Shown: positions 11,495-29,057, counted from the stretch's first letter. The stretch: 64,000 bases of DNA from Sphingobacterium sp. (GCA_029239355.1 JAQZAZ010000008.1:24197-88196); one strand, 5' to 3'. The notes: generated by a model from the sequence alone, not told the origin. Numbers and translations are program-made.

Positions 11495-14400
11495 ATGAAC
11501 AAAAACAAGATTAATCTCGGAAAAATGACATTGGGGGCCGCTGCTTCCGGTTCAAAATATCCGATGTTAATGCTCTTTTGCAGTAGTTTTATACTCGGAA
11601 ATCCATTGATTTCCAATGCTGCGTTAAATGTCACTACGTTTCATAAAATCACTGTAAATCAACTAAAAGAAATAAAAGGTAAAGTTACAGACGAGCAGGG
11701 CAATCCTATTGTTGGCGCTACTGTAACAGTTGTCAATTCTACGCAATCAACCTCCTCCAACGCAACTGGAGAATTTACACTTAAAATAACAGGGGAGAGC
11801 GGCACAATCAAAATCACTTCAGTTGGCTACACGGAAAATGTGTTGGCAGTAAAAGCAGGCGACAGCGTTAATGTTGCGCTTAAGAAAAATGATCAGGCTT
11901 TAGACGAGGTCGTGGTAATCGGTTATGGTACGGCCAAACGTCGGGATCTAACGGGGGCCGTGGCTTCCGTTAAATCTGAAGAGATTATGATGACGCCAAC
12001 GGCCAATGTCATGGACGCCCTTCAGGGAAAAGTCTCCGGTCTGGATATCACCAAATCATCCGGACGTGCAGGTGCCAATGTCGGTGCGAGCCTAAGGGGC
12101 AACAGGTCTTTCAGTGGTGATAATAATCCGCTCTATATTATTGATGGTATTCCAGGTGATTTTACGAGTTTAAATCCCAGTGATATCGAATCCATAGACA
12201 TTCTGAAGGATGCCTCATCGACGGCAATCTATGGTTCTGCAGGTTCAAATGGTGTAATTATCATTACGACAAAACAGGGTAAGGCGGGTAAAGCGATCGT
12301 GAATTTTGATTCCTATTTTGGCTATAATGGATTCCCAAAATATCCCCATGGATTGCTGGGAGACGATTATATGAAACTGAAAAGGGAAGCTTACCGTGGT
12401 GAGCATGGCAATTACCCAGAATTTGCCAATAATATCTTTAAGAATCCTGCACAGTTGGAGGCCTTTGAAAACGGTAAATGGGTGGACTGGATGGACCTGG
12501 TCTTAAAAGACGGAATCCAGCAGAACTATAGCTTTTCAGTGAATGGCGGTAATGAAAAAACAAAAGCTTTTTTGTCGCTCAACTATAACGATGAAGAAGG
12601 TCTTATAAAAAATGATAATAATAAAAAGTACGCTGTAAGGGCAAATATAGATCATAAACTTTCTGACCTGTTTAAAGTAGGTACGAATCTACAGTACACG
12701 TATAAGGACAATAACCAGGCCGCACAAAATGTATTCGGCAACAGCCTGACCTTTTTGCCTCTCGGAAATGCGTTTGATGCTGATGGTAATATCAATCATA
12801 TCCCAGTGGACGGTGTTACCAATCCCTTGTCTGATCAGATCAAGGATCAATATAAAAATAACATTCTGAGCAACTATTTTGCTGGGAATGCCTATCTTGA
12901 TTTTACCCCGGTCAAAGGGCTCTCGTTTCGTTCGATCTTCGGCGCAACCATAGGATCCCAACGTACGGGCCGATATTTTGGGACGCAATCCATAGCCAAT
13001 CCCGAAGCGGGTTTTAAATTACCGGCCGCAGTCATCATCAATGACAGGAATTACAATTATCGCTGGGAAAATATCTTAAATTATGAATTTGACCTGCATG
13101 AGGACCACCATTTTGCATTGACGGGAGTAACCTCGTGGTCGAAAAACCAAGCGGAACAAGCTTACGCAGGTGGATCCGGATTCGACCTGGATTCTTATTC
13201 TTTCCACAATCTGAGTGCGGCCACCACTTCTGTAATTCGCTCTTCTTATATTGGTTCACAGTCGATGTCTTATGTGGGGCGTATCAACTATAACTATCAG
13301 GGGCGATATTTGCTATCCGTTTCCAGCCGTTGGGATGGTGTTTCTCGATTATCCGAGGGCAATAAATGGGACGTATTTCCAGCAGGAGCATTTGCTTGGC
13401 GCCTAAGTGATGAGCAGTTCTTTGCGCCATTGAAAGGCAAAATATCGGAGTTAAAGCTACGCGCAGGTTATGGTATCACCGGTAATTCGGGGGGCGTGGG
13501 CGCCTATGGTACACAAGCAGGTGGATATAATGCGCCTAAACCGGTAGGTTTTGGTGAAAGTACACTCGGTCCAGCTTTTATTCTGAATCAACAACTTGCT
13601 AATAGGGACCTGGGCTGGGAGAAGTCGTATACAACAAATATTGGTCTAGATGCGCAATTCTTGAACCAGAAAGCTAACCTAACTATTGATTGGTACAATA
13701 CAGAAACAAAAGATCTGCTCTTTCTACGGGATATGCCAGCTTCGTTAGGCGGTTCCTGGGGAGCGCCTTTCAAGATGTGGCAGAATATTGGTGCTACAAA
13801 CAATAGAGGATTTGAACTCGCATTAAATACAAAAAATATTCAGGGAGATAGTTTTACCTGGAATTCAACATTGACTTTTGCCGCGAATAAAGAACGTGTG
13901 ACCTCATTACCGGGGGGGAAAGACCTGATTTCAAATAACCTATTTATCAATCAGCCAATCAAAACGTTTTTTGATTATCAGTACCTCGGTATCTGGCAGG
14001 AAAGTGAAGCGGAGCAGGCAGCCTTATTCAATTCCAAACCGGGTGATATTAAGTTAGCCACTGATGGTACGGTCAATGAAGATGGTACGCATGCATATGG
14101 AGCCAAAGATAAACGTATTCTTGGATCAGCGGTTCCGAAATGGACGGGTGGATTTCAGAATAATTTCAAATACCATAACTGGGACCTTTCGGTATTTTTA
14201 ACCGCAAGATGGGGACAGATGTTGTCCAGCAACTTGATCACGCGTTATGATCCGACAACAGGTGTAGGAAATAGTCCCGACGATATAGATTATTGGACAC
14301 CGGAAAATCCCGGCGCTTATTTGCCAAGACCAGGATTACATTCCTCGACCAGTGGCTATATCGGGTTTGATGCGTTGAAATACGTGGATGGATCCTATTT

Positions 14401-14611
14401 TAAGATTCGGAATATTACCTTGGGCTATAGTTTGCCAAAGTCATTCATTAAGCGTCTTTCCATGGAACGTTTCCGTTTTTATGCAACCGCTAACAATCCG
14501 TTCATCTTTACAAAAAGTAAGCTGTTAAAGTACCAGGATCCCGAATCCAACGGTTCGGATAATTTCCCGTTGACCAAGCAGTTTGTGCTCGGATTAAATG
14601 TTACTTTTTAA
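11495..14611 (+). CDS. susC: SusC/RagA family TonB-dependent outer-membrane transporter
   Basis: LDEVVVIGYG, plug motif PLYIIDG, DIESIDILKDASSTAIYGSAGSNGVIIITTK and C-terminal GLNVTF. Confidence 0.97.
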   Translation: MNKNKINLGKMTLGAAASGSKYPMLMLFCSSFILGNPLISNAALNVTTFHKITVNQLKEIKGKVTDEQGNPIVGATVTVVNSTQSTSSNATGEFTLKITGESGTIKITSVGYTENVLAVKAGDSVNVALKKNDQALDEVVVIGYGTAKRRDLTGAVASVKSEEIMMTPTANVMDALQGKVSGLDITKSSGRAGANVGASLRGNRSFSGDNNPLYIIDGIPGDFTSLNPSDIESIDILKDASSTAIYGSAGSNGVIIITTKQGKAGKAIVNFDSYFGYNGFPKYPHGLLGDDYMKLKREAYRGEHGNYPEFANNIFKNPAQLEAFENGKWVDWMDLVLKDGIQQNYSFSVNGGNEKTKAFLSLNYNDEEGLIKNDNNKKYAVRANIDHKLSDLFKVGTNLQYTYKDNNQAAQNVFGNSLTFLPLGNAFDADGNINHIPVDGVTNPLSDQIKDQYKNNILSNYFAGNAYLDFTPVKGLSFRSIFGATIGSQRTGRYFGTQSIANPEAGFKLPAAVIINDRNYNYRWENILNYEFDLHEDHHFALTGVTSWSKNQAEQAYAGGSGFDLDSYSFHNLSAATTSVIRSSYIGSQSMSYVGRINYNYQGRYLLSVSSRWDGVSRLSEGNKWDVFPAGAFAWRLSDEQFFAPLKGKISELKLRAGYGITGNSGGVGAYGTQAGGYNAPKPVGFGESTLGPAFILNQQLANRDLGWEKSYTTNIGLDAQFLNQKANLTIDWYNTETKDLLFLRDMPASLGGSWGAPFKMWQNIGATNNRGFELALNTKNIQGDSFTWNSTLTFAANKERVTSLPGGKDLISNNLFINQPIKTFFDYQYLGIWQESEAEQAALFNSKPGDIKLATDGTVNEDGTHAYGAKDKRILGSAVPKWTGGFQNNFKYHNWDLSVFLTARWGQMLSSNLITRYDPTTGVGNSPDDIDYWTPENPGAYLPRPGLHSSTSGYIGFDALKYVDGSYFKIRNITLGYSLPKSFIKRLSMERFRFYATANNPFIFTKSKLLKYQDPESNGSDNFPLTKQFVLGLNVTF

Positions 14612-14623
14612 TGCCAATATGTT

Positions 14624-16402
14624 ATGAAAATCAACTACTTCAATATACTCTTATGTGCAGGACTTTTTTTGAATTCCTGTTCTCTCGATGAATATAACCC
14701 TTCTGGGGTCACGGTGGATAAGGTCGCGGAAAATAAAGCCGGTTTCGATAAACTGATCAACAGCTGTTACTTTGATCTACCACGTTACTTCTATGGAAGA
14801 AACTTCTTACTCGTTACCGAGGGGGGGACTGATTTATGGACTGCGGATCTGAATTCAAATAATAACCAAAACTATTTAAAATATGCTTCTGGCGGTTCTA
14901 TGTCCATAGACATGGCCAAGGACTACTGGAATGGTGCTTATGATGCCATCAATTATTGTAATATCGTCATCGGCAGGGTGGATCAGGTCAAAGATTTTTC
15001 CAGCGAGCAAGAAAAACTGGAAAAAGTTGCCCAAGCTTATTTTTTAAGAGGATTGTATTATTTCCATCTAGTCGAACAGTTTGGTCCTTGTCCGCTTAAC
15101 CTCACGGAGACCACAACAGCCAATACTGCCGCCATACGTACACCTGTGCTGGAAATTTATGAAAAATGTATCCTGCCTGATCTGCGGTATGCTGCAGAAC
15201 ACTTGCCTGTAGGACCTACAGAAGTCGGACGGCCAAGTCAGAAGGCTGCATTGGGCCTATTGGCAAAAGCTTGTTTGCAGACAAAAGAATATAATACCAA
15301 TCAGTACCTGGAGGAAGCACTGCAGACGGCAAAAAAATTGATTGATAATCAGGTGGGCTACAACGTACACCTGTATGCCTCCTTTATAGATAATTTTAAC
15401 GCGGCAAATAACAAGAAAAACGCCGAAGCACTTTACCAGATTCCTTATTCGCAGGAGTATGGATCCACCAATGTATACGATCATAATAATGATTTTAAAC
15501 GGTTCTATTGTACGCCGACAACTTTTGGTGCCATACAGCTTGCCGGATTTCAGACCGAAGTAGGACGTTGGTCTGGCGGAACATTTATGCCGACCAAATA
15601 CCTGCTTGATGTATTCAAAAATAGCGATAACACCTTAGATCCTCGTTATGGTGTTTCATTCCAGACACAGTGGACCTCCAATGCGAATTATAACTGGAGC
15701 AGAGATGCTGTCGTGCAGTTTGACCGTGATGAAAATGCTGTCGCTGTCGGGGCTAACCTTCCTAAAGGAAGTGTAGCGATTAAAATAGCCCGTAGCGGCG
15801 AAGCTGGCTATGACGAAGAGAAAAAAGTCCAATTTCAGCAAAATTATATCTGGCTTGACCTAGAAGATGTCTATGGATCGGATAATAAGGTCAAAATGAA
15901 ATATACCCGGACAAATCAGCAGCCGGGACAGGTGGATAATCCATTTATCGGTTTTTATCCATCTCTGGTGAAATTCAATTCGGGCTCGTTAATTAGTCCG
16001 AAAGCAAACAATTTTACCAGCGACGCCTATGCTACTGTTATGCGTTTGGGAGAGGTATACCTCATTGCTGCCGAAGCTTCCTTTCACTTGAATGGTGCCA
16101 ACGGAACAGCCGCCAACTATATCAATGTATTACGCGACCGGGTAGGGGCCAAGCAGATTACTGCTGGAGATATCACAGCCCAGTTTATACTGGATGAGCG
16201 CGCTCGTGAGCTGTGTGGCGAGTACACACGTTGGTATGACTTGAAACGCATGGGCAAATTGAGCCGGTCGTATTTGATGGCGGTCAATCCCGATGTCGGA
16301 CAATATTTTAAGGATGGCGTACATGGCCTTCGTCCAATTCCGCAAGGACAGATGGACGCCATTAGTAACCCAGGTGAATTTCTTCAGAACAATGGGTATT
16401 GA
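14624..16402 (+). CDS. susD: SusD/RagB family glycan-binding lipoprotein
   Basis: Lipobox FLNS-C, AYFLRGLYYFHLV, RLGEVYLIAAEA and ILDERARELCGEYTRWYDLKR; directly follows susC. Confidence 0.97.
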   Translation: MKINYFNILLCAGLFLNSCSLDEYNPSGVTVDKVAENKAGFDKLINSCYFDLPRYFYGRNFLLVTEGGTDLWTADLNSNNNQNYLKYASGGSMSIDMAKDYWNGAYDAINYCNIVIGRVDQVKDFSSEQEKLEKVAQAYFLRGLYYFHLVEQFGPCPLNLTETTTANTAAIRTPVLEIYEKCILPDLRYAAEHLPVGPTEVGRPSQKAALGLLAKACLQTKEYNTNQYLEEALQTAKKLIDNQVGYNVHLYASFIDNFNAANNKKNAEALYQIPYSQEYGSTNVYDHNNDFKRFYCTPTTFGAIQLAGFQTEVGRWSGGTFMPTKYLLDVFKNSDNTLDPRYGVSFQTQWTSNANYNWSRDAVVQFDRDENAVAVGANLPKGSVAIKIARSGEAGYDEEKKVQFQQNYIWLDLEDVYGSDNKVKMKYTRTNQQPGQVDNPFIGFYPSLVKFNSGSLISPKANNFTSDAYATVMRLGEVYLIAAEASFHLNGANGTAANYINVLRDRVGAKQITAGDITAQFILDERARELCGEYTRWYDLKRMGKLSRSYLMAVNPDVGQYFKDGVHGLRPIPQGQMDAISNPGEFLQNNGY

Positions 16403-16468: not shown

Positions 16469-18979
16469 ATGAAGCAGACAATTCTCATATGGTTTTTTAT
16501 ATTTTTTTCGCTCGGTAGTCTGTCGGCGCAGACAGGTGAAATCCATGTTGGTAAACAAAGCAACAAGGAACAACGGGATGGCAGCCCGGGAGCTCCATTT
16601 TCATGTTTGGAGGATGCCCTGCGTGAGGCTAGGGAATGGCGACGATTAAACGATCCGCGCATGCGGCATGGCATCACAATCTGGATTCAGGACGGACAGT
16701 ATGTGCCCACCCAGACCATTTTTATCCGCCCTGAAGACAGCGGAACAGCCGAAAGTCCGACATGGATAAAAGCGGTAGGCAACGAAGCCGTATTTTCGGG
16801 TGGGATTTCTGTTATAGACTGGCGGCAAGTAAAAAGTGAAAAGAGATTGGATCCTGCTATTGCTAAGCATATCATGGTGGCAGATGCCCCTCAGGCCGGA
16901 GGAAAGTATTTCCCTTTCTGTCAATTGTGGGTTGGCTCACGTAAAGCAATCCGTGCGGAAAGTCACGATGATGCCCACTTGCCCCGGATCATCAATTGGG
17001 ATTTTCAAAAACAAGCGGCCGTCATTCCGAACGTGTTACCGAAAAGGTTTGCCTATAAGGCCGGTATGGAGTTTTTCATCCATCAGTGGTGGGCAATAGC
17101 ACAGCTCCGGGTTCGTGAGGCGGTAGTCACAAAAGATAGTACCACACTATTTTTTCATGAACCGGAAGGTAAATTACAGAATGAACACCCTTGGCCTAAG
17201 CCTTGGTTGTCTAAGGAATATGGCAATTCGGCATTTCGTCTGGTCAATGCCCTTGAATTTTTGGATCAGCCGGGAGAATGGTTTTTGGATGAAGAAAACC
17301 ATAAAGTATATTATTATAAAAGACCTGATGAAAACTTAGATAAGTTACATGTTGTAGCGCCTTATCTCGAAACGATCCTGAGGATGCAAGGGACTTTGGA
17401 ATCACCTGTTTGTCATGTATATATCGAAGGGCTTCAATTTCAGCACAGCTCCTGGTTAAGGCCGTACTACTACGGACACGTTGCCTTACAGGCGGGAATG
17501 TATTTTTTGGACGCCTATAAACTGGCTAAACCAGGCACTAAGGATAAAGCGGGATTGGAGAATCAGGCTTGGCTGGGACGGCCTCAAGCGGCAGTCATGC
17601 TTAGCCATACGGCCTTTACCAATATTTCAGCTTGCCGATTTTCCCATTTGGCAGCAACAGGCATTGACTATCGGCAGGGCAACCTGAAGGATAGTCTAAT
17701 TGGCAATCTATTTCAGGACATCGGCGGATCGGGTGTACTGCTCGGTCAGTTTTCAGATGAGGAGATTGAAGCACATTTACCTTTTCAGCCCAGCGATGAG
17801 CGTATCTTGACCGATGGTGTTGTGGTCAGCAATAATCTAATCCAAGATATTGGGAATGAGGATTGGGGAACAGTAGGGATTGGTGCCGGTTTTGTCCGCA
17901 ATGTAGCTATTACAAACAATGAATTGCTTGATCTTCCGTACACAGGCATTAGCTTGGGCTGGGGCTGGACACCTACAGTCAATGCTATGCGTAATAATCG
18001 TGTTTTCAAAAATAAGATCACACGTTATGGCAAATACATGTATGATGTAGCCGGTATTTACACCTTATCGGCTCAGCCCGGAACAAAAATTCAGGAAAAT
18101 TATATCGACAGTATCTATGTGTCGCCTTATGCGCATATTCCTGAACATTGGTTTTATCTCTATACCGATGAAGGCTCAGCCTATATGAATGTCAGCAACA
18201 ACTGGTTCCCATCCAATAAAATATTGCGAAATGCGAATGGGCCGAGTGTTGAGTGGATAAAGAATGGACCCGAGGCGGATGCCAGGGTCAAAGAAGAAGC
18301 TGGCATCGGTCCACGTTATGCCTATTTATTGTCTGAAAAACGATCAATACCTAAAAATGTAGCTTTCAATACATATATTCCTTTTACCAAACCTGTATTT
18401 TTTCAGATCCATGATGCAAAAAAGCAGCTTAAGCTGACTGAAATCAAAGATTTTTTTGCTAAACAAGGAGCCGATAGCAGCCAGGTATATCGTTGGAAGG
18501 ATTACATCTTGCTGATGACAGACGATGAAATCGGTAAGAAAATATCGAGTGCTTGGGTAGCTAATTATCCGGCAATTTCTTATAAGTTGTTCAATGATCT
18601 ATTTTATACGTTCGATCGGAGCAACTGTGGAACCGAGAAAGTGAAAGATATCGATTTTGTGTTACTTACCGCACAACTGGTGGACGATAAATCGAAACAG
18701 GAGGCTTATTTCGAAGCCCATAAAAATCAATCTAAAGAATGGCCCGAAGTTGCAGCAGGGTTCTGCAAAGCCGGCTTTGACGAGGTATTGGTCTACCGAA
18801 ATGGAAGGCAGCTTATGTTATATATTTCTTTTCCAAAAGGTCAGGATTTTAAAACAATCGATCAGCTGACGACCAGGGACAATCCACGGGTTATGGAATG
18901 GAACAAACTTATGGGGACCTATCAGGAAGGTATTCCCGGAACGGGAGTGAATGAAACATGGATTTTTTATAAACAATAA
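16469..18979 (+). CDS. GH141 (alpha-L-fucosidase, BT1002-type) beta-helix enzyme with C-terminal L-rhamnose/L-fucose mutarotase-like domain
   Basis: FFIHQWWAIAQLR, EFLDQPGEWFLD, LPYTGISLGWGW, DVAGIYTLSAQPG and YLYTDEGS. The C-terminal ~110 aa (Y..AH..WPEV..G..VY..NPRV.EW..LM..YQ) follows the RhaM/FucU-type mutarotase pattern. Signal peptide present. Confidence 0.82.
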   Translation: MKQTILIWFFIFFSLGSLSAQTGEIHVGKQSNKEQRDGSPGAPFSCLEDALREAREWRRLNDPRMRHGITIWIQDGQYVPTQTIFIRPEDSGTAESPTWIKAVGNEAVFSGGISVIDWRQVKSEKRLDPAIAKHIMVADAPQAGGKYFPFCQLWVGSRKAIRAESHDDAHLPRIINWDFQKQAAVIPNVLPKRFAYKAGMEFFIHQWWAIAQLRVREAVVTKDSTTLFFHEPEGKLQNEHPWPKPWLSKEYGNSAFRLVNALEFLDQPGEWFLDEENHKVYYYKRPDENLDKLHVVAPYLETILRMQGTLESPVCHVYIEGLQFQHSSWLRPYYYGHVALQAGMYFLDAYKLAKPGTKDKAGLENQAWLGRPQAAVMLSHTAFTNISACRFSHLAATGIDYRQGNLKDSLIGNLFQDIGGSGVLLGQFSDEEIEAHLPFQPSDERILTDGVVVSNNLIQDIGNEDWGTVGIGAGFVRNVAITNNELLDLPYTGISLGWGWTPTVNAMRNNRVFKNKITRYGKYMYDVAGIYTLSAQPGTKIQENYIDSIYVSPYAHIPEHWFYLYTDEGSAYMNVSNNWFPSNKILRNANGPSVEWIKNGPEADARVKEEAGIGPRYAYLLSEKRSIPKNVAFNTYIPFTKPVFFQIHDAKKQLKLTEIKDFFAKQGADSSQVYRWKDYILLMTDDEIGKKISSAWVANYPAISYKLFNDLFYTFDRSNCGTEKVKDIDFVLLTAQLVDDKSKQEAYFEAHKNQSKEWPEVAAGFCKAGFDEVLVYRNGRQLMLYISFPKGQDFKTIDQLTTRDNPRVMEWNKLMGTYQEGIPGTGVNETWIFYKQ

Positions 18980-18980
18980 A

Positions 18981-20075
18981 ATGGAACAGATACAACAGTT
19001 AAAATTAGGAATTTTAGGACTTGGTGAAGGACGTAGCACGATGTCTGCGGCATTACAAAGTCCATATATCGATTTGGTCAAGATCTGCGATCTGAACGAA
19101 GACCTAGGACGCAAACGTATGAAAGAATTTGATTTTCATGATTATACCAATGATTATCAAGCAATGCTTAATGATAAAAGCATTGAAGCTATTGCAATTT
19201 ATACCCCGGATCATCTTCACGCACAGCATATCCGATTGGCGCTGGCGCACGATAAACACGTGATCTGCACCAAGCCATTTATTGATAATCTGGCCGATGC
19301 CAATGGTTTATTGGAACTCGCAGCTCAGAAAAATAAGCGTGTATTTGTTGGGCAGAGCTCCCGTTTTTTTGAACCGGTGAAAAAGCAAAGAGAAGATTTT
19401 GAAGCTGGACTGATCGGTGAGTTGATTACCATCGAAGGTTATTACCATGCTGATCACCGCTGGTTTTTGGAGAAGCCTTGGTCTTTACAGTCTTCCTTCA
19501 AATGGCTTTACGGTGGGTTGAGTCATCCGGTTGATTTTATCCGCTGGTATCTGCCGAATATTGAAGAGGTGATGGGATATGGCATGCTGAGCGCCAACGG
19601 AAAAAAAGGAGGGCTGCAAAATCCAGACACCATGCATTTTATTTTCAAGACCGAAGATGGCCGTGTAGCCCGAGTAAGTGGTGCGTATACCGGACCTGTA
19701 CAGCCTGTCACACGGGATAGTGAGATGAGTTGTATTTTACGGGGGACCGAAGGTGCTAGTCAGGCAGATTATATGGACCTCCGGTATGCAATTACGGATA
19801 AAACGGGCGAAGAACGCATGCTGACATGGGAGCATAAACTAAAGCATTACTTCCGTTTCGAAGGAAAAAGCCATCATGCCGGTGAATATCAAAATTACCT
19901 GGAGCACTTCGCAAAAGCTATCCGTACCGGAGAGGATGCCTCCCCAGATATGAAAGAGGGTATAGGTACTATAGCCTTATTGCAAGCTATGGATGAATCA
20001 TTGACAACAGGAAAGCCTGTCCGTCCAAAGGAACTGCTGGAAAGATATGGTGTCGACTTGAACCTAGGAAGATGA
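18981..20075 (+). CDS. Gfo/Idh/MocA family NAD(P)-dependent oxidoreductase (cytoplasmic)
   Basis: Rossmann LGILGLG, IYTPDHLH and HVICTKP (TKP in place of EKP); no signal peptide. ATG 18981 lies 1 nt after the GH141 stop. Confidence 0.9.
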   Translation: MEQIQQLKLGILGLGEGRSTMSAALQSPYIDLVKICDLNEDLGRKRMKEFDFHDYTNDYQAMLNDKSIEAIAIYTPDHLHAQHIRLALAHDKHVICTKPFIDNLADANGLLELAAQKNKRVFVGQSSRFFEPVKKQREDFEAGLIGELITIEGYYHADHRWFLEKPWSLQSSFKWLYGGLSHPVDFIRWYLPNIEEVMGYGMLSANGKKGGLQNPDTMHFIFKTEDGRVARVSGAYTGPVQPVTRDSEMSCILRGTEGASQADYMDLRYAITDKTGEERMLTWEHKLKHYFRFEGKSHHAGEYQNYLEHFAKAIRTGEDASPDMKEGIGTIALLQAMDESLTTGKPVRPKELLERYGVDLNLGR

Positions 20076-21652
20076 ATAGTATCTTAGACAAGTTAACCAT
20101 TTACGACTATTGTATCGTCGTAGTCTATTTGTTAGCATTACTGACGATCGGCCTCTTGTCATCCCGTAAAAAGGTTGAAGGGGCAGAACACTTCCTGGCC
20201 AGCAAATCCTTAAGCTGGTACAGTATTGGATTCAATATGTGGGCGACTAACGTCGGACCATCCATGTTGCTGGCTTTTGCTACAGTAGGCTATACAACGG
20301 GCATCGTTGCGGTCAATTTTGACTGGTATGCTTTTATCTATCTTTTCCTATTGGCGGTGGTGTTTGCGCCACGCTATATTTCTACCGGAGTACGCACCCT
20401 GCCTGAGTTTATGGGTAAGCGGTTCGGTCCAAATACGCAAACTATTCTGGCTTGGTATTCATTGGTAAAAATGCTTATTTCATGGTTGTCGTTGGGGCTG
20501 TTTGCTGGCGGATTTTTAGTGCGGCAGATTTTGGGAATTCCAATGTGGCAATCGGTTACTGTTTTAGTCTCCCTAGCTGGTCTGTTTGCGTATACGGGTG
20601 GATTAAAGACAGTTGCTAAAATCAATATCTTTCAGATGATCTTGCTGATCGCCGTGTCGGCCTTTCTGACTTTCCTGGGACTTTCCAAAATCGGTGGCAT
20701 AAGTTCTTTAATGCAACAGACTCCCGCCAATTATTGGTCGTTGATCAGACCGGCAAGTGATCCAGATTATCCCTGGTATGCCATCGCTTTAGGTTATCCA
20801 GTGGCAGCGATCGCTTTTTTCTGTACGGATCAAGCCATGGTACAATCAGTTTTGGGTGCAAAGAATCTCGAACAGGGGCAACTGGGAATTAATTTTATCG
20901 CTTGGCTCAAGATACTTTCCTTGCCGCTGTTTATCCTCACCGGTATCATCTGTTCGGTTTTATTTCCGGGACTTAAAGACCCATCACTTGCTTATATGAC
21001 CATGGTGACCAACCTGTTTCCTACAGGCCTGAATGGATTGGTAATCGTGGTGTTAATTGCTGTATTGGTGGGCACCATTGGTTCGTCGCTTAATTCTTTG
21101 AGTACCGTTTTCACCATGGACATATATCTGAAGCATATCCGGCCAGATGCAAACAATAAGCAAATCACCCAGGTAGGACGTTATACTGTCATCATCGGCT
21201 GTCTAGCTTCAGTTTTCGTTGCCCTGGCGATTGATCAAATTAAAGGGCTCAATCTTTTCGATGTATTTCAGTCTATTCTCGGATTTATTGCGCCACCTTT
21301 AGCTGTTGCTTTTCTGATGGCCGTGTTGTGGAAAAGAACCAATCGAGCAGCAATCAATACGATTTTGACTTTTGGTGCGGTACTTAGCCTGGGGACAGGT
21401 GTATGTTATCTCTGGATTTTCCCAAAAGATGTTTATTCCTTTTGGCCGCATTATCTAATGCTTTCCTTTAGTCTATTTATGCTGCTACTTATTATTGGAA
21501 TAGGCCTAGCATACTGGGTACCCAAGTCGGTTTATGAAATGGAACATGGGGATATGTACGATATCACTGTGGAGAAACCAAGTGGACGCGTCAAGATTGC
21601 CTGGGCAATGTTATTTGTGGTTATGCTCTTGTTGTATATTTATTTTAAATAG
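20072..21652 (+). CDS. Sodium:solute symporter (SSS/SGLT family) sugar transporter
   Basis: About 14 hydrophobic segments, WYSIGFNMWATNVG, LPEFMGKRFG, GGLKTV and DQAMVQSVLGAK; ATGA overlap with the oxidoreductase. Confidence 0.92.
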   Translation: MNSILDKLTIYDYCIVVVYLLALLTIGLLSSRKKVEGAEHFLASKSLSWYSIGFNMWATNVGPSMLLAFATVGYTTGIVAVNFDWYAFIYLFLLAVVFAPRYISTGVRTLPEFMGKRFGPNTQTILAWYSLVKMLISWLSLGLFAGGFLVRQILGIPMWQSVTVLVSLAGLFAYTGGLKTVAKINIFQMILLIAVSAFLTFLGLSKIGGISSLMQQTPANYWSLIRPASDPDYPWYAIALGYPVAAIAFFCTDQAMVQSVLGAKNLEQGQLGINFIAWLKILSLPLFILTGIICSVLFPGLKDPSLAYMTMVTNLFPTGLNGLVIVVLIAVLVGTIGSSLNSLSTVFTMDIYLKHIRPDANNKQITQVGRYTVIIGCLASVFVALAIDQIKGLNLFDVFQSILGFIAPPLAVAFLMAVLWKRTNRAAINTILTFGAVLSLGTGVCYLWIFPKDVYSFWPHYLMLSFSLFMLLLIIGIGLAYWVPKSVYEMEHGDMYDITVEKPSGRVKIAWAMLFVVMLLLYIYFK

Positions 21653-21658: not shown

Positions 21659-22435
21659 TCAAGTTAATCCTAGATTGGATTCAATTTGTGATCTGCATTT
21701 TTTTAAACTTTCAACAATAGTTTCGGTCGGCATATTCTGCCCAATTTGACGTCGGACGAGCTTTGAAACCGTGAGGCAGGCGATGATGCCTGTTTCGCTG
21801 GTTCCGATGGGAACAGAAATATCGATGATGCCTTCCGCGTATGCGCTGGGCATCTCATAAAAGCCTTTGCGTTTGATTTCGGCTAGGTCGCTATCAAATT
21901 GCTGACGTTCTGCTTTCTTCAAGCTGCGGTAATAGGGATCGGTTTCTAAAATGGATTTTCTTTTTTTAGCCTCTGAAAAACTTAAAAGGAGCTTTCCAGA
22001 CGCGGTCTGGGACGTGTTGTAGAGGTTGCCTTCCTCAATCATGATGCTGATGGGCGACGAACCTCTGGCATAAGCGATGACCATGACCTGATTGTCGTAA
22101 ATAACACAGAGGTGACAAGGGTCTTTGATTTCGTTGGACGTATCCTGCATCGGTAGTAATGACGTTGCCCGTAGTTTCTCTACAAAGGAATGCCGGTGTG
22201 AAAGATAGTATAGCTTCAGTGAAAGCGAATATTTAGATGAAATTGGATCACGATGAATGTAACCGTTGGACTCCAGTGATGCAAGCATGCGATAGATTTC
22301 ATTGGGACTTCGATGCAAGCCCAAGGCGATCTCGGATTGGGATTGTGCTGTTGGTTGTAAGGCCAGAAATTCAAGAATCTGCAATCCTTTTTCGAGCGCT
22401 GGTGCTTTATATTTATCGGAGCTATTTACTATCAT
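21659..22435 (-). CDS. IclR family transcriptional regulator
   Basis: N-terminal wHTH (YKAPALEKGLQILEFLA...EIA..L......IYRML..L...GYI..D) and C-terminal effector domain (EIKRKGFY..ISVPI). It is the only minus-strand gene, divergent from the CoA-transferase operon. Confidence 0.93.
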   Translation of the reverse strand: MIVNSSDKYKAPALEKGLQILEFLALQPTAQSQSEIALGLHRSPNEIYRMLASLESNGYIHRDPISSKYSLSLKLYYLSHRHSFVEKLRATSLLPMQDTSNEIKDPCHLCVIYDNQVMVIAYARGSSPISIMIEEGNLYNTSQTASGKLLLSFSEAKKRKSILETDPYYRSLKKAERQQFDSDLAEIKRKGFYEMPSAYAEGIIDISVPIGTSETGIIACLTVSKLVRRQIGQNMPTETIVESLKKCRSQIESNLGLT

Positions 22436-22553: not shown

Positions 22554-22819
22554 TATAAACCGCTTTTCCTTTGGGAAAAAGCATGACAAGGGAAAAGATT
22601 ATAAACAATAATATCAATAATTAAATTACAGGACTGTTCCGCTTAGGCTATATTATCAGACCAAAATAGCGAAACGAAAAAGGATAAAATCGCCGTGGCT
22701 CCAATGTTATATTTTGCTGTTTTTAAGGAGGAATAGGTAAATAGACCTTGATATTAAGATGATAGATACAGTTGCTCTGTTTTTCGACAAGACAACATAA
22801 AATAATAAATGAATACACA

Positions 22820-23983
22820 ATGACAGAGAAAATCCAGTTAAAAGGGATTACCTGGGGGCATACCAGAGGCTTTGTACCAATGGTTGCGACTGCGCAGCGT
22901 TATGAAGAATTATGTCCAGCAGTTGAAATTGTTTGGACAAAACGGACTTTACAGGAATTTGCTGATAAGTCAGTGACAGATTTGGCAATGGAATACGATC
23001 TATTGGTCATTGACCATCCATGGACGGGACATGCTGCTGCGAAGGGGATGCTCGCTGCATTTGATGATTACCTATCCGCAGATTTTTTGGCAGATCAGCG
23101 TACTAATAGTGTTGGGAAATCTCATGAAAGCTATAACTTTCTTGGAAAGCAATGGGCATTGGCTACGGATGCTGCAACACCGGTGGCTGCAAGTCGTCCG
23201 GATCTTTTACAAGCCTTGCAAGTGGCACTTCCACGTACATTTGAAGATGTTTTAGTGCTAGCAAAAACCGGAAAAGTCGGATTTTCGCTGTTACCGATTG
23301 ATTCCTTGATGCACTTTTACGGTCTTTGTTGTTCTTTGGGTGAAGAACCTTGCCAAGATAACGAAAAAGTAATCAGCGACACAGTTGGAATAAAGGTCTT
23401 AAAATTATTCAAATCACTTGCCGATGAATTGGATCCCGGATTTTATGAGAAAAATCCATTTAAGGTTTTCGAAGAAATGACTCAGCGTGATGAAATTGCT
23501 TACTGTCCATTTGCTTATGGCTATTCGAATTACGCTCGGGCAGGTTATGCACGTAAGGTGTTGCATTTTCATGATTTAGTGTCATTAAATGGTACGCCTA
23601 TGATCAGCACACTTGGCGGGGCGGGGCTGGCAGTATCTTCACAGGGCAAGCATATTGATGTGGCCATGGATTATGCACGATTTGTCGCGACACCGGAAGT
23701 TCAGAAAACGCTATATGTCGAAAATGGCGGCCAGCCTGGACATTTAGGTGCCTGGAAAAATGAGCAGGTAAATGCCGTTACGGCCAATTATTTTAGCAAT
23801 ACACTACCCGCATTAGATCGGGCTTATTTGCGCCCGCGTTATGATGGTCATCTTTATTTTCAGGATCATGCTGGTGATATCGTGGTTGATTATCTAAGGG
23901 ATGGCGGCGACGAAAAGGCGGTTTTGGACAAAATGAATGCGATGTATCGGGAATCATTAGTCGATAAAGAAGATCATGGATAA
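22820..23983 (+). CDS. Solute-binding-protein fold (SBP_bac_1-like) protein without signal peptide
   Basis: YDLLVIDHP, WALATDAA and TLGGAGLAVS...FV..PEVQ are typical of sugar SBPs. N-terminus MTEKIQLKGITWGH has no hydrophobic or lipobox signal, and the alternative TTG at 22772 adds none. Confidence 0.8.
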   Translation: MTEKIQLKGITWGHTRGFVPMVATAQRYEELCPAVEIVWTKRTLQEFADKSVTDLAMEYDLLVIDHPWTGHAAAKGMLAAFDDYLSADFLADQRTNSVGKSHESYNFLGKQWALATDAATPVAASRPDLLQALQVALPRTFEDVLVLAKTGKVGFSLLPIDSLMHFYGLCCSLGEEPCQDNEKVISDTVGIKVLKLFKSLADELDPGFYEKNPFKVFEEMTQRDEIAYCPFAYGYSNYARAGYARKVLHFHDLVSLNGTPMISTLGGAGLAVSSQGKHIDVAMDYARFVATPEVQKTLYVENGGQPGHLGAWKNEQVNAVTANYFSNTLPALDRAYLRPRYDGHLYFQDHAGDIVVDYLRDGGDEKAVLDKMNAMYRESLVDKEDHG

Positions 23984-25127
23984 TAAACCACTGGAAGGAC
24001 TTTTGGTCCTCGAGTTTTCACAATTTATGGCTGGGCCAACTGCTGGCCTGCGTTTGGCGGATCTCGGTGCCCGAGTCATCAAAATTGAACGCCCGGGGGC
24101 TGGCGAAGGGGGACGGCAGATTGCGATTAAAAATATTTTTGTAGATGAGAGTAGCCTGGTCTTTCATACCATCAACAGAAATAAAGAATCGTATGCAGCC
24201 AATTTGAAAGATGAAAATGATCTGGAAAATATTAAAAAATTAATCCGTCAGGCAGATGTGATGACACATAACTTCCGCCCCGGTGTCATGGAAAAGATCG
24301 GTTTGGATTACGAGAGTGTGCGGAAAATTAACCCCAAAATGATCTATGCCACGGTAACTGGCTACGGCAATGAAGGGCCATGGGCTAAAAAGCCAGGGCA
24401 GGATTTACTCGTGCAATCTCTGTCGGGACTTTCCTGGTTATCGGGCTGTGCGCAGGATGGGCCGGTTCCTTTTGGATTGGCCGTGGTGGATATGTACTGT
24501 GCCACACATCTGACACAAGGTATATTGGCAGCATTGTTGAAACGTACCCGTACCCAACAGGGAGCTCTTGTTGAAGTCAGTTTGCTTGAATCTGTGTTGG
24601 ATATGCAGTTTGAAATGCTGACCACACATGTCAACGATGGCCGCAAGCTGCCTCAGCGGTCGACGGTTAGAGGAGCTGGCCATGCTTATTTAAGTGCGCC
24701 TTATGGACTCTACAAAACCCTTGATGGCTATCTAGCCTTGGCCATGGGCAATGTAAGGCATATAGCAGAAACCATAGGCTTGCCTGGAAAGTCCTATCAA
24801 GATGCTTCAACTTGGTTTTCACGACGTGACGAAATACTTCAAGAATTTGCTGCAGTATTGTGTCAAAAGACAACGTGCGAGTGGATATCCCGTTTGGAAT
24901 CCGAAGGGATTTGGTGTGGCGTAGTAAACGATTATCATCGTTTCTTCGAGGAACAAGGTTTTAAGGAGGCAGGGATGTTGCAGGAAGTCACTTTACAAGA
25001 TGGCACCGCATTGACCACCACCCGTAGCGTGTACCAGATCGATGGAAAGCGTTTATATGCGGATAAACCTGCGCCAAAAGTGGGCCAGCATACGGCATCA
25101 ATTGTTCACGATTATTTAGAAAATTAA
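23976..25127 (+). CDS. Class III (CaiB/BaiF) CoA-transferase, subunit 1
   Basis: [16 protein letters not shown]...[36 protein letters not shown] and catalytic-Asp region VVDMYCA. Confidence 0.93.
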
Positions 25128-25128
25128 T

Positions 25129-26271
25129 ATGTTACCACTAGCAGGTTATACCGTAGTCGACTTTAGTCAATTTTTATCCGGCCCATTAGCAAGTTTACGG
25201 CTAGCTGACTTAGGTGCGCGGGTTATAAAAATAGAAAAACCAGAGACGGGTGATATTTGCAGGCAATTATATACCTCTGATACGATATTGAATGGTACTT
25301 CAACAGTGTTTCATGCCATTAATCGGAATAAAGAAAGTATGGTGTTGGATTTGAAAAGCGAATCCGACAAACAGATTATACATGATTTAATCGCACGGGC
25401 AGATGTGGTGTTGCACAATTTTCGTCCGGGTGTCATGGAACGTTTGGGCTTTGACTATGCAGGTGTCCGAGAGATCAATCCGACCGTGATTTATGGAGAG
25501 ATCTCGGGATATGGAAAAGAAGGCCCCTGGGTTAAGCGGCCTGGCCAGGATTTATTATTGCAATCGCTTACCGGGATGACTTGGTTAAGTGGCGATGCAA
25601 ATAATGGTCCAGTAGCCATGGGACTTTCCGTTGTGGACATGTTTGCCGGATCCAATCTATGTAGTGCCGTATTGGCCTGCCTGTACCGTCGAGCGATGCA
25701 GGGGATAGGAGCGCATGTTCATGTTAGCATGTTGGATTCTGCTGTGGATATACAGTTTGAGGCCGTCACAACCTATTTTCGTGATGGCAAATTGTTGCCA
25801 CAACGTAGCGAGGTGAGCAATGCACATGCATATTTGGCAGCACCTTATGGGGTGTATCGTACGCAGGATGGTTTTCTGGCCCTTGCGATGGGTTCCATTC
25901 CTTTTCTTGGTAAATTATTGAATTGTAGCGCATTAGAAGGTTTTGCTGACGGAGAGCAAGCTTTTCGGGAGAGAGATACCATTAAAGCTATTTTAGCCGA
26001 GCACCTGACGACAGCACCTACTTGGCATTGGCTGGAGATACTGGAAGCAGCGGATATCTGGTGCGCCGATGTCTTGGATTGGCGTCATCTGACCGAACAT
26101 AATGCTTTTAAAATATTAAACATGCTACAGCAAGTAACGATGGGCGATGGCTTCCGTTATGAGACCACCCGTTGCCCCATTCGCATCGATGGCGAGCGGT
26201 TGACCGCGACAAAAGGTTCGCCCAAACTTGGTGAGCACACAACTAAAATATTGGAGGAACTGTATGGATAA
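25129..26271 (+). CDS. Class III (CaiB/BaiF) CoA-transferase, subunit 2
   Basis: [16 protein letters not shown]...[38 protein letters not shown] and PKLGEHT; an evident paralogue of the preceding gene. Confidence 0.93.
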
Positions 26272-27487
26272 GTTACGTTTTGCTGTCCGGAAATTTGAAC
26301 CCTTTGAGCGTGCCATGGAGAAATGTTGGGCAGCCTATCAGGAGGTATATCCATCGGATGTGGAGATGGAGTTTGTTCCGCTGGATTTAGAGGAATTGAC
26401 AGCAGCTTTCTTTGAAAAGAAAGGCCTCAAGAATGGCGATTGGGATATCATTCACATCAATACCGATTGGATTGCACGGGCCTATGAAACCAAGGGTTTG
26501 TCGGCACTGGATAGTATGATCGTACAGAATCCACCGGAAGACCTGAAAGGGGCTTGGCCAGAAAGCTTACAAGCTTTACAGCGTTTTGACCAGCAAATAT
26601 TTGGCTTGCCTTTTCATGATGGTCCTGAATGCCTGGTTATTCGAAAAGATTTATTTGAAGATTTGCAAGAACAGATGCGTTTTCAGGTACGCTACGGAAA
26701 ACCTTTGGAAATTCCAAAAACCTGGGCTGATTTTTTGACTGTTGCAGCATTTTTTACGCGGCCGGAAGATAACTTGTACGGGACAGTGTTTGCTGGCTAC
26801 CCGGATGGGCATAATGCGGTATTTGATTTTTGTATTCAACTTTGGTCCCGCGGTGGAGATTTGCAGCAAGGCGACGTACCTGTTAAGCTGGATCAGCCAT
26901 TAGCTATAGATGCATTGGATTTTTATCGTAGCTTATTTATGAAGGATAGCGGATTGCATCCCGAATCGGCTAATTTTGAATCAGTGCAGGCTGGTGCCGC
27001 CTTTGCGCGGGGTGAAGTAGCTATGATGGTCAATTGGTTTGGTTTTGCATCCTGGGCACAGATTGATGCCGCCTCGGCCGTAAAAGGTAAGGTGGATGTA
27101 GCAGCTATTCCTTCAGCAGAAAGCGGGATGTCCCCCTCATTAAATGTGTATTGGTTGTATGCAATTCCAGAAGGTAGTCGTCATAAGCAGTTGGCTTATG
27201 ACTTTATACGTTTTGCAGTCGGACGCCAACAAGATAAGCTGCTCACTGTCGAAGGAGGAGTAGGCTGTCGTTACTCCACCTGGTATGATTCCGAAATCAA
27301 TCGGATGATACCCTTTTATAATAAATTGGCTGAATTGCACGATACTGCACGCACATTACCGCGCTTAGCCAACTGGCCGCAGATTGCACATATCATCGAT
27401 GATACTGTAATTGCTGCGATAAAGACCGATGAAAGTAGTCTTTCATTATTAACAAAAGCACAGGAAAAAATAAATGCATGGTTATGA
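26264..27487 (+). CDS. Second solute-binding-protein fold (SBP_bac_1-like) protein without signal peptide
   Basis: [42 protein letters not shown] and AYDFIRF. It starts [10 protein letters not shown] at ATG 26264 (8-nt overlap) with no signal peptide. Confidence 0.82.
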
Positions 27488-28557
27488 TAGATATCCCTTA
27501 TAAAACGATTTTACCCCAGACTGCTTTGCCGATTATCATTATTGGTGCAGGGGGTATAGTGAAAGATGCGCATCTCCCGGCTTATCGTAAGGCAGGCTTT
27601 CATGTGCATGGTATTGTCAATCGTACAAAGGCGAAAGCGGAAGCATTGGCGGTAGAATTTGGTATTCCACATGTTTACGATACGGTGGAAGATGCCGTCG
27701 CACAGGCTCCCGAAAATGCGGTTTATGATGTAACCATTATGCCCAATAAATTTATAGAAACCTTGGAGGCATTACCTCAGGGCGCGGCTGTATTAATTCA
27801 GAAGCCAATGGGTGATTATTATGCAGATAGTCAGGCGATATTAGAAGTCTGTCAACGTAAAGAATTGGTCGCAGCGATCAACTGTCAGCTTCGGCAGGCA
27901 CCTTTTGTGAATGCGGCACGCTGGCTGATTGACCAAGGTTATATCGGTGAACTGTATGATATGGAAGTGCGGGTGTCGGTGCATACACCTTGGCAACTTT
28001 TTCCCCATGTCATGGTACACCCACGCTTGGAGATTCTGTATCACAGTGTTCATTATATTGATTTGATCCGCTCATTTTTAGGCAATCCACAGTCGGTGTA
28101 TGCAAAAACATTGAAGCACCCGGCCAAAGCCTTATCATCCAGCAGGACGACCTTGCTATTTGATTACGGAGACACACTACACGCTGTTGTAAATACCAAT
28201 CATGACCATGAATTTGGGCCGAAGCATGAGGAAAGCTATATCAAATGGGAAGGTACCAAGGGGGCTATCAAAGCGACGATGGGTTTGCTGATGGATTATC
28301 CGCATGGGGTATCCGACGTGTTTGAATATTGTATCAAGCCAATAGATGGCAGTCAACCGGAATGGGTGGCCTACCCGATCGAGGGAACTTGGTTTCCCGA
28401 TGCTTTCATCGGAAGCATGGGTAGCTTGATGCGTTTTAAACTGGGTGAAATAGCGGTATTACCGGCCGCGGTTGAAGATGTAATCCATACCATGGCCGTC
28501 GTAGAGGCTGCTTATCAAAGCAGTGCCCAAGGGGGGCAACCGATAACAAAAGGATAA
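27484..28557 (+). CDS. Gfo/Idh/MocA family oxidoreductase (candidate aldose dehydrogenase)
   Basis: IIGAGGIV...H, LIQKPMG, YHSVHYIDLIR and WEGTKG. ATG 27484 gives an ATGA overlap; ATG 27478 is the alternative start. Confidence 0.9.
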   Translation: MIDIPYKTILPQTALPIIIIGAGGIVKDAHLPAYRKAGFHVHGIVNRTKAKAEALAVEFGIPHVYDTVEDAVAQAPENAVYDVTIMPNKFIETLEALPQGAAVLIQKPMGDYYADSQAILEVCQRKELVAAINCQLRQAPFVNAARWLIDQGYIGELYDMEVRVSVHTPWQLFPHVMVHPRLEILYHSVHYIDLIRSFLGNPQSVYAKTLKHPAKALSSSRTTLLFDYGDTLHAVVNTNHDHEFGPKHEESYIKWEGTKGAIKATMGLLMDYPHGVSDVFEYCIKPIDGSQPEWVAYPIEGTWFPDAFIGSMGSLMRFKLGEIAVLPAAVEDVIHTMAVVEAAYQSSAQGGQPITKG

Positions 28558-28593
28558 AGAAACAAAGCCTTAAAACCAACAATAAATTAAATT

Positions 28594-29046: not shown

Positions 29047-29057
29047 CCTATTATCAC

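Follow-up and report, generated by a model that had tools for sequence, protein, structure and literature searches.

A four-part accessory cassette of an RG-II locus is described here in a soil Sphingobacterium sp., within a window of 64,000 nucleotides (the whole stretch of DNA analysed; GCA_029239355.1, JAQZAZ010000008.1:24197-88196). It is formed by a GH141 enzyme, a mutarotase-like module, an SGLT-type symporter and Gfo1, an oxidoreductase of the Gfo/Idh/MocA type. The linkage of GH141, Gfo1 and the symporter across genomes is far beyond chance. No plant polysaccharide known is more complex than RG-II, and its model degrader B. thetaiotaomicron excretes the disaccharide 2-O-Me-Xyl-Fuc as an end product (PMC10154630; 2026 preprint); an earlier note on this DNA had named the linkage of this fragment as the only one of 21 in RG-II that the species leaves uncut. 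On genomic evidence, the cassette is the best candidate for the use of the excreted fragment. Tentatively, and at somewhat short of an even chance, it is proposed to salvage the GH141 product: the module would interconvert the anomers, the symporter would import the sugar, and NAD+-dependent oxidation at the fucose C1 would feed a neighbouring CoA module.

Table 1. Features of the GH141 region, in window coordinates.
Feature	Position	Strand	Remarks
SusC/SusD pair	11495..16402	+	TIGR04056 SusC 9.7e-249; SusD_RagB 6.9e-34; immediately 5' of GH141
GH141 catalytic part, residues 1-621	16469..18331	+	Sec signal peptide; predicted BT1002-type endo-acting alpha-L-fucosidase; N-terminus MKQTILIWFFIFFSLGSLSAQ
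Tandem ferredoxin-like module, about 215 residues, GH141-fused C-terminus	18332..18979	+	Second half RhaM/FucM-type mutarotase-like
Gfo1, cytoplasmic NAD+-type Gfo/Idh/MocA oxidoreductase	18981..20075	+	'TKP / GLSHPVD' subfamily; Pfam
SGLT-type Na+/solute symporter	20072..21652	+	SSF 3.6e-47; ATGA-coupled to Gfo1
IclR-family regulator	21659..22435	-	HTH_IclR/IclR_C (Pfam); convergent with the trio, divergent from the CoA operon
CoA module	22772..30353	+	SBP-like, two class III CoA-transferases, SBP-like, Gfo2, MaoC, FucP-like MFS (Pfam)

The RG-II locus and its GH141 enzyme

The end of susD (16402) and the start of the GH141 gene (16469-18979, plus strand) are 66 nt apart, and the SusC/SusD pair and GH141 are probably one transcription unit. 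A single base (18980) lies between the GH141 stop codon (TAA, 18977-18979) and the Gfo1 ATG at 18981, the Gfo1 stop and the symporter start overlap as ATGA at 20072-20075, and the symporter gene, which ends at 21652, is followed after 6 nt by the IclR gene on the opposite strand and, from 22772, by the CoA operon. Open reading frames, sequence and coordinates thus confirm what the earlier note had described, namely that the three genes are coupled and that the trio is placed between susD and the IclR/CoA region. Pfam and NCBIfam models identify the three products (GH141_M, 2.3e-52; GFO_IDH_MocA, 3.1e-20; SSF for the symporter). The surroundings are those of an RG-II-type PUL, with GH78, GH106, GH127, GH137-like, GH2, GH28 and DUF5703 genes, and the window also encodes RhaT and RhaI/B/D-type proteins.

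The assignment to GH141 follows from the insertion domain (PF21231, 2.3e-52), the beta-helix and the full-length similarity to BT1002 (5MQP; E 1.8e-168 over residues 22-618, with 44% identity over about 600 residues). The catalytic Asp pair of BT1002 is D523/D564 (PMC10154630). Both residues are kept in the window enzyme, in YDVAG at 525 (D526) and YTDEG at 565 (D567), and align with the BT1002 motifs at an equal spacing of 41 residues. The two systems share the beta-helix with its insertion domain, both Asp and the RG-II PUL neighbours GH78, GH127 and GH106; unlike BT1002, the window enzyme carries an extra mutarotase-like module of 215 residues, and genes for a cytoplasmic oxidoreductase and a symporter come after it. 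Other members of the family are xylanases and endo-fucanases; homology and the RG-II PUL context suggest that the window enzyme would release 2-O-Me-D-Xyl-alpha1,3-L-Fuc from side chain A.

Linkage across genomes

In 80 loci of the closest Gfo1 relatives, a GH141 gene on the same strand precedes Gfo1 in 79; the mutarotase-like module, whether fused to GH141 or encoded as a separate secreted protein, is directly 5' of Gfo1 in 78 and lacking in the other two; and the symporter is found at most 700 nt downstream of Gfo1 in 74, three Flectobacillus loci being without an adjacent one. The earlier note had proposed to measure the co-occurrence of GH141 with the symporter/Gfo pair, and the count speaks for it: among about 700 Bacteroidota genomes sampled, Gfo1 is present in 11 of the 15 that carry GH141 and in no others, and the symporter, too, is never seen there in the absence of GH141. 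In the phylum sample, Gfo1 orthologues were counted in 9/9, all with GH141, and in the class sample Gfo1 occurs in 9 of 13 GH141-positive genomes and in 0 of 388 GH141-negative ones (Fisher p about 1e-15 for the co-occurrence, from counts that ignore kinship: three families, at least seven genera). The hosts are soil Sphingobacteriales, Cytophagales and Chitinophagales. Loss affects Gfo1 and the symporter jointly, as one cassette; in two loci of the same gene order (L085 and L086), GH141 is short, and mutarotase module, Gfo1 and symporter are all missing. The absence of these parts from short GH141 loci of the B. thetaiotaomicron type is in keeping with salvage of the excreted disaccharide.

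The CoA module is the probable downstream partner of the cassette. Of the genomes with the cassette, 10 of 11 carry its CoA-transferase pair, vs 0 of 8 of those that lack the cassette, the exception being a draft genome (G619) with the cassette and without CoA-transferases. In seven Sphingobacterium species (L011-L015, L018, L021) the trio and the CoA module form a single gene string: IclR is absent, and SBP1 lies 15-48 nt past the symporter in the same direction. Genome-wide co-occurrence and these gene strings uphold the tie to the CoA module that the earlier note had proposed.

Module, symporter and oxidoreductase

Pfam rhaM (PF05336) matches GH141 residues 741-831 (8.5e-9; 36 bits vs a cut-off of 23.4); searches of the PDB with the module by phmmer and with a profile of 39 homologues gave no match. 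Its AF2 model (pLDDT 93) is a tandem of two beta-alpha-beta halves with a fold of the ferredoxin-like dimeric alpha+beta barrel type, resembling solved mutarotases in Foldseek. The closest single-domain fold match is the Acidovorax L-fucose mutarotase 7BYU (TMt 0.77, rmsd 2.8 A over 110 columns, Foldseek E 1.2e-3). A Tyr-x3-His motif (Y126-x3-H130) is invariant in the 39 homologues and is, as judged by eye, a candidate counterpart of the RhaM catalytic dyad, Tyr18/His22 in E. coli. By its modelled fold, which resembles that of L-fucose mutarotase, the module appears to be a RhaM/FucM-like mutarotase. Many genera have it as part of the GH141 protein, others as a separate secreted protein, and the fused form links it to what GH141 releases.

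In Hymenobacter, a GH78-like gene sits between GH141 and the mutarotase gene, and the name RhaM denotes a rhamnose mutarotase; both facts would suit a very improbable alternative, in which Gfo1 and the symporter are a passenger pair for another sugar (L-rhamnose, with the GH78-like neighbour, L-galactose, 2-O-Me-fucose or an inositol-type substrate). The best NCBIfam match of Gfo1 is likewise iolG (3.7e-29), well under its cut-off (TIGR04380, 101.7 bits vs 355), and the top fold matches are inositol dehydrogenases. Against such a passenger, most loci with module and GH141 side by side have them fused and none has the module fused to GH78, the window already holds the RhaT and RhaI/B/D-type genes and has no iol genes, and Gfo1 without GH141 was never found in the approximately 700 genomes. 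As for L-galactose, the known dehydrogenase BVU_0219 clusters with plant GALDH, an aldo-keto reductase and so of a family other than that of Gfo1.

The symporter belongs to the SSS/SGLT family (TC 2.A.21; TIGR00813, 211 bits vs a cut-off of 184), with similarity to SGLT/vSGLT in the range E 1e-49 to 1e-58 (hSGLT1, 7.4e-58; vSGLT, 2.8e-49). In our own mapping on the alignment, the core sugar-coordinating Asn/Lys/Gln (hSGLT1 N78, K321 and Q457) are kept and E102 is replaced by Asp; unlike in SGLT/vSGLT, the aromatic lid is altered (Y290/W291 to Phe/Phe, His83 to Met), and the substrate may be a disaccharide. The SGLT-family carriers characterised to date transport, to our knowledge, monosaccharides, inositol or aryl glucosides, which counts against a disaccharide. 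Import of the sugar still as a disaccharide is suggested because the symporter is linked exclusively to GH141.

The monosaccharide-binding residues retained in that mapping also favour an unlikely, though serious, alternative, in which a further periplasmic activity removes the methyl-xylose, or GH141 frees L-fucose, and the cassette provides an L-fucose mutarotase, a carrier and a 1-dehydrogenase as a non-orthologous FucM/FucA replacement feeding a CoA-dependent fucose pathway. Handling of free fucose would require no new chemistry and agrees with the L-fucose mutarotase fold of the module; moreover, full-length FucI is found neither in the genome of the window nor in the other cassette genomes, and two cassette-free congeners have one. 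On the other hand, a general importer and dehydrogenase would be expected without GH141 too, and none is present in about 690 GH141-lacking genomes; the window has no GH31 or other alpha-xylosidase candidate; and the FucP-like MFS carrier and Gfo2 of the CoA module would make the symporter and Gfo1 redundant.

Gfo1 is a Gfo/Idh/MocA member by its domains (PF01408, PF02894, PF22725), with a Rossmann N-terminus, an alpha/beta C-terminus and a Lys-Pro motif after beta4. The N-terminal sequence gives no signal peptide, and leaves no space for one, because GxGxxG begins at residue 10. The atypical TKP motif in place of EKP, pointed out previously, is real (VICTKPF, residues 94-100, invariant in 30 orthologues), and Lys98 and Asp37 are invariant as well. 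Orthologues share 68-99% identity, against a mere 36% for the next relatives; identity to any characterised enzyme is below 25%, and the sequence therefore does not tell which position (C1, C3 or C4) is oxidised. By fold, Gfo1 is nearest to inositol, glucose-fructose, L-glucose and levoglucosan dehydrogenases (Foldseek E 1e-24 to 1e-20). It falls far below the NCBIfam equivalog cut-offs of the glycoside/disaccharide 3-dehydrogenase families (BT_2158, 52.9 bits vs 750; BT_2159, 37 bits vs 650). A sister subfamily, with 36% identity to Gfo1, has the TKP and GLSHPVD motifs in common with it; one member adjoins a FucU/RbsD gene, and a sister Gfo on a Chloroflexota contig has, some 1.4 kb away and in the opposite orientation, an SBP1-like (46% identity) plus class III CoA-transferase pair. 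TKP is thus a subfamily trait, common to relatives in unrelated loci, and no sign of glycosidase chemistry.

The earlier note had left two options for Gfo1, cleavage of the disaccharide, by analogy with the NAD+-dependent GH109 alpha-N-acetylgalactosaminidases, or oxidation of its reducing end. GH109 enzymes share the Gfo/Idh/MocA fold and are exported, whereas Gfo1 lacks a signal peptide; no specific similarity was detected, since neither the 50 PDB sequence matches listed at E<=1e-5 nor the top 50 found by Foldseek include a GH109 entry, and GH109 membership was rejected. The cleavage option gains no specific support, and reducing-end oxidation gains indirect support from the mutarotase module before Gfo1 and from the sister enzymes beside FucU/RbsD and SBP/CoA-transferase genes. 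A redox-neutral cleavage of the GH4/GH109/NanOx kind, with bound NAD+, transient oxidation of the xylose and elimination of fucose towards Gfo2 and the CoA module, is improbable. Such chemistry is known in this fold for GH109 and for RgNanOx/YjhC; YjhC, levoglucosan dehydrogenase and DgpA are neighbours of Gfo1 in sequence and fold, and Gfo2 would make sense as a fucose dehydrogenase. Apart from the missing GH109 matches, the low BT_2158 and BT_2159 scores (53 and 37 bits) and the shared TKP, it is opposed by the fact that the sole xylose-isomerase-like TIM barrel of the locus is secreted, leaving no cytoplasmic lyase/hydratase partner, and a mutarotase for the reducing end would be irrelevant to it.

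A possible salvage route and its significance

In the preferred reading, GH141 would cut the disaccharide from side chain A, the periplasmic mutarotase module would equilibrate the anomers of the new reducing L-fucose, and the symporter would import the sugar, most likely as the intact disaccharide. Gfo1 would then oxidise C1 of the reducing fucose to a lactone or aldonic acid, and the carboxylate would pass to the co-inherited CoA-transferase/MaoC module. Speculatively, the xylosyl substituent could leave by thioester-assisted beta-elimination at C3, with no glycosidase involved; the full sequence of intact import, aldonic acid formation by Gfo1, thioester formation by a class III CoA-transferase and CoA-dependent, eliminative cleavage of the hydrolase-resistant glycosidic bond by MaoC is regarded as distinctly unlikely.

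Two known systems offer parallels. In 2,7-anhydro-Neu5Ac salvage (IT-sialidase / RgNanOx / YjhC), an extracellular enzyme likewise frees an unusual form of a sugar, which a carrier of its own, of SSS or other type, takes up and a Gfo-family enzyme of the cytoplasm, RgNanOx/YjhC, makes usable for metabolism (PMC7535918, PMC8461474). Homology to that system is confined to the fold (YjhC, E 1.3e-9, covering a part of the protein). The substrate is a different one, as is the chemistry, and NanOx works in a redox-neutral way, unlike the oxidation proposed for Gfo1. [quoted passage not shown] The cassette resembles it in having a RhaM-fold mutarotase ahead of an NAD(P)+ dehydrogenase, with an aldonic acid as the expected product. 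It differs in that Gfo1 is a Gfo/Idh/MocA protein, the known FucA enzymes being short-chain dehydrogenases; in that the mutarotase is a secreted tandem module on a glycosidase; and in that the substrate may be a 3-O-glycosylated fucose. The locus has a CoA-transferase/MaoC set instead of a lactonase or enolase-type dehydratase, and the lack of a lactonase gene in the cassette counts against the salvage reading. So does the separation of a periplasmic module from a cytoplasmic Gfo1, which makes the FucM-then-dehydrogenase logic indirect. The CoA module also has its own transporter and dehydrogenase, which blurs the division of labour with the cassette and weighs in the same direction.

The compact cassette, with its clear pattern of presence and absence, is a testable candidate for the missing RG-II step. 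It places an orphan but highly conserved subfamily of Gfo/Idh/MocA proteins with the TKP motif in a functional setting, and shows a secreted glycosidase fused to a mutarotase-like module. If oxidation and elimination prove true, a non-hydrolytic cleavage of glycosidic bonds would be added, with a bearing on the cross-feeding of pectin fragments in soil and gut, and with eliminative cleavage the depolymerisation of RG-II would lose its last gap.

Gene layout of the RG-II-type locus

A plus-strand RG-II-type carbohydrate locus fills nearly the whole window, and its nearest public counterpart is that of S. prati, in which the oxidoreductase is 99% identical to the window's. The earlier note had described GH141, a cytoplasmic Gfo/Idh/MocA oxidoreductase (Gfo1) and an SSS-type Na+ symporter as a coupled trio following susD. 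The window coordinates bear this out: 66 nt separate the end of susD from GH141, the trio is joined by a 1-nt gap and an ATGA overlap, and a convergent IclR gene lies 6 nt beyond the symporter. These three genes, together with a mutarotase-like module at the C terminus of GH141, are referred to here as the cassette.

Genes of the RG-II-type locus, in window positions
Feature	Position	Strand	Remark
BNR/GH33-like protein, CE15-like esterase			
Xylose-isomerase-like TIM barrel	2524-3411		secreted
GH28, GH78			
GH137-like protein	7740-8840		N-terminal part of BT0996 model
GH2	9010-11406		
SusC/SusD	11495-16402		
GH141	16469-18979	+	stop codon TAA
Gfo1	18981-20075	+	starts 1 base past GH141 stop
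Symporter	20072-21652	+	start overlaps Gfo1 stop (20072-20075)
IclR regulator			
CoA module	22772-30353	+	seven genes: SBP-like proteins (first, SBP1), two class III CoA-transferases, Gfo2, MaoC, FucP-like MFS
GH78-like protein, GH2, GH106, GH127, SASA esterases, DUF5703 protein			
RhaT, aldolase/SDR fusion, isomerase, kinase			phosphorylating L-rhamnose set
GH51, GH115, GH43			

The GH137-like gene aligns with the N-terminal portion of the model for BT0996-type beta-glucuronidase/beta-L-arabinofuranosidase, and GH2 comes after it as a gene of its own; the single fused protein of the B. thetaiotaomicron-type model seems to be encoded by two genes in the window. The SusCD slot ahead of the cassette is variable: the pair between GH2 and GH141 is missing in S. 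puteale and S. zeae (L002, L009), and other species have in its place a pair only ~42% and 37% identical to that of the window. The xylose-isomerase-like TIM barrel has a clear signal peptide, which places it in the periplasm, and its gene lies directly 5' of GH141 in Mucilaginibacter, Arcicella, Siphonobacter and others. We weighed it as a lyase partner but rejected it on account of its signal peptide and its absence from the Hymenobacter cassette loci.

The mutarotase-like module and the cassette as a unit

GH141 carries a Sec signal peptide and matches BT1002, the B. thetaiotaomicron GH141 (PDB 5MQP), over residues 22-618 (E 1.8e-168, 44% identity), with both motifs that hold the BT1002 catalytic aspartates (D523, D564) kept. 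Its C-terminal ~215 residues (622-836) have no counterpart in BT1002. Residues 741-831 within them match the L-rhamnose-mutarotase domain of Pfam, and a model predicted from an alignment of 39 homologues has two ferredoxin-like halves (pLDDT 93). Fold matches to the whole module are tandem ABM-type proteins, and the best single-domain match is the Acidovorax avenae L-fucose mutarotase 7BYU (TM 0.77 on the target, rmsd 2.8 Å). PDB sequence searches with the module gave no match, and its link to RhaM/FucM is by Pfam profile and fold comparison only. A Tyr-x3-His pair is invariant in the 39-homologue alignment and, judged by eye, may be equivalent to the catalytic dyad in RhaM of E. coli.

The module is fused to GH141 in Sphingobacterium, Parapedobacter, Arcicella, Flectobacillus, Siphonobacter, Larkinella, Sediminibacterium and a Chitinophagaceae MAG, and this recurrent fusion links it to the GH141 product. 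In Mucilaginibacter, Hymenobacter and Olivibacter it stands alone as a protein of 235-275 residues that carries either a signal peptide or a lipoprotein box. Even in Hymenobacter, where a GH78-like gene lies between GH141 and the module gene, the latter still abuts Gfo1; since the module is directly 5' of Gfo1 in 78 of the 80 loci with the closest Gfo1 relatives, the conserved core consists of the module, Gfo1 and the symporter.

These 80 closest loci (72-99% identity) belong to Sphingobacteriales, Cytophagales, Chitinophagales and one Flavobacteriales. GH141 lies 5' of Gfo1 on the same strand in 79 of them, the exception being a 4-kb contig, and the symporter follows within 700 nt in 74; the other six comprise three contig ends and three Flectobacillus loci. 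In the latter (L066, L072, L074) the GH141-mutarotase fusion and Gfo1 are kept and a GH78 gene occupies the symporter slot; either a different carrier is used there or the symporter is encoded elsewhere. Two loci labelled as a 'Candidatus Dadabacteria' MAG (L053) and a 'Janthinobacterium lividum' MAG (L058) are Hymenobacter/Bacteroidota-like, with Gfo1 76% identical; they are probably mis-binned contigs, and no evidence for the cassette outside Bacteroidota.

Co-occurrence of GH141 with the symporter/oxidoreductase pair, proposed earlier as a check, was found in wider samples too. Gfo1 orthologues (68-71% identity) occur in nine of 301 evenly sampled Bacteroidota genomes, exactly those that have GH141, and the two genes adjoin every time; the next-best Gfo1 relatives there are only 36% identical. 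Across 401 genomes of the class, the GH141 insertion domain was found in 13 and Gfo1 in nine, all within the 13. Three of the four GH141-only genomes encode short BT1002-like enzymes of 600-693 residues, and in the fourth (G575) a frame of 821 residues matches weakly (E 7.5e-15). The Fisher p of ~1e-15 overstates independence, the positives coming from three families and at least seven genera. Two GH141-only loci (L085, L086) have the gene order of cassette loci, with the mutarotase gene, Gfo1 and the symporter jointly absent; given this joint presence and loss, the cassette acts as one presence/absence unit inside RG-II loci.

Gfo1, its sister group and the CoA module

A signal peptide would not fit in Gfo1, since the dinucleotide-binding glycines of this protein begin at residue 10. 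Asp37, typical of NAD+ users, is invariant, and VICTKPF stands at the site of the usual family EKP. Assignment from characterised relatives failed, PDB and NCBIfam matches all being of family-level similarity only, and membership of IolG was tested and rejected. The AF2 prediction is of moderate quality (pLDDT 74) and poor over the sheet on the substrate side (residues 240-300); its fold neighbours include enzymes that oxidise C1 (glucose-fructose oxidoreductase, L-glucose dehydrogenase), C2 (inositol dehydrogenases) and C3 (levoglucosan dehydrogenase, DgpA). Membership of GH109 and of the BT_2158/BT_2159 type was rejected, GH109 being absent among the sequence and fold neighbours listed and the scores for the latter falling far under the model cut-offs. 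That Gfo1 performs NAD+-assisted cleavage in a NanOx-like, redox-neutral role is conceivable in principle but improbable. The TKP motif is shared, together with GLSHPVD, by a sister group 36% identical to Gfo1; it is therefore a subfamily trait that gives no hint of glycosidase chemistry, and the GH109 analogy drawn in the earlier note found no specific support.

In one Bacteroidota genome the sister gene comes after a FucU/RbsD mutarotase/pyranase gene. On a Chloroflexota MAG contig (PSKX01000013.1; L088:1496-6408) it lies ~1.4 kb from an oppositely oriented SBP1-like/class III CoA-transferase pair, with SDR, DUF4432 and ABC transporter genes coming next. The SBP1-like protein is 46% identical to the window's cytoplasmic SBP1, so that the association of Gfo, SBP-like protein and CoA-transferase recurs across phyla. 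The presence of this pair and of two mutarotase families beside the subfamily lends indirect support to the view that Gfo1 may oxidise an anomeric carbon to the acid. Sister loci of other phyla (L081:4034-11583, L087, L090) hold three or four URO-D-like (MtaA-type) methyltransferases, a B12-binding protein and a PhyH dioxygenase, as well as GH31, GH38, a GH2-malectin protein, SSS carriers and a sugar kinase. These clusters look like a hitherto undescribed route for the breakdown of O-methylated glycans or sugars by corrinoid-dependent and/or oxidative demethylation.

Paired class III CoA-transferases of the CoA module occur in 10 of 11 cassette genomes, on the same contig and 10-70 kb off when not adjacent, and in none of eight cassette-free comparison genomes, four of which have GH141. 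In seven other Sphingobacterium species the IclR gene is lacking and the first gene of the module starts 15-48 nt past the symporter on the same strand, forming a single gene string. CoA-transferases require a carboxylate, which speaks for a sugar acid, either as the Gfo1 product itself or as what that product turns into.

Fate of the GH141 product

The reading we prefer, with somewhat less than even confidence, is that the cassette is a four-part salvage system for the presumed GH141 product of RG-II, 2-O-Me-D-Xyl-alpha1,3-L-Fuc. The mutarotase-like module would equilibrate its anomers in the periplasm, the symporter would import it with Na+, Gfo1 would oxidise C1, and the product would be handed over to the CoA module. 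It is rather doubtful that a sequence of oxidation, activation by CoA and MaoC-type beta-elimination then breaks the hydrolase-resistant xylosyl-fucose bond.

In sequence the symporter resembles SGLT carriers (human SGLT1, E 7e-58), and the equivalents of sugar-binding Asn78, Lys321 and Gln457 are kept in our mapping onto the alignment. Known substrates of the SGLT family are small, which would suit a scheme in which cassette and CoA module together are simply a pathway for free fucose, as would the distribution of FucI. Full-length matches (~600 aa, E 1e-49 to 1e-53) were confined to two cassette-free Sphingobacterium genomes; the window's genome (91% complete) gave none, and sampled cassette genomes gave either shorter matches of ~475-490 aa or none (the comparison covered G000, G227, G570 and others). 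The cassette and CoA module may replace the FucI route. Against free fucose, and for the disaccharide as the likelier cargo, stand the exclusive dependence on GH141, the fact that the window offers no candidate alpha-xylosidase, and a FucP-like carrier and second dehydrogenase already present in the CoA module; we consider the free-fucose scheme fairly unlikely. That the cassette serves another sugar seems improbable. L-galactose was dropped as a substrate: the L-galactose dehydrogenase known from Bacteroides clusters with its plant counterpart GALDH, an aldo-keto reductase and of a different family from Gfo1.

The earlier reading of the trio is thus upheld in part, by the co-occurrence with GH141 and the link to the CoA module, and lacks specific support as regards GH109. 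No description of the cassette was found in the literature searched; a 2026 RG-II preprint reports that B. thetaiotaomicron secretes the disaccharide and mentions alternative pathways in soil Bacteroidota, the disaccharide step not being addressed. On the salvage reading, the cassette would represent oxidative fucose catabolism attached to a PUL.
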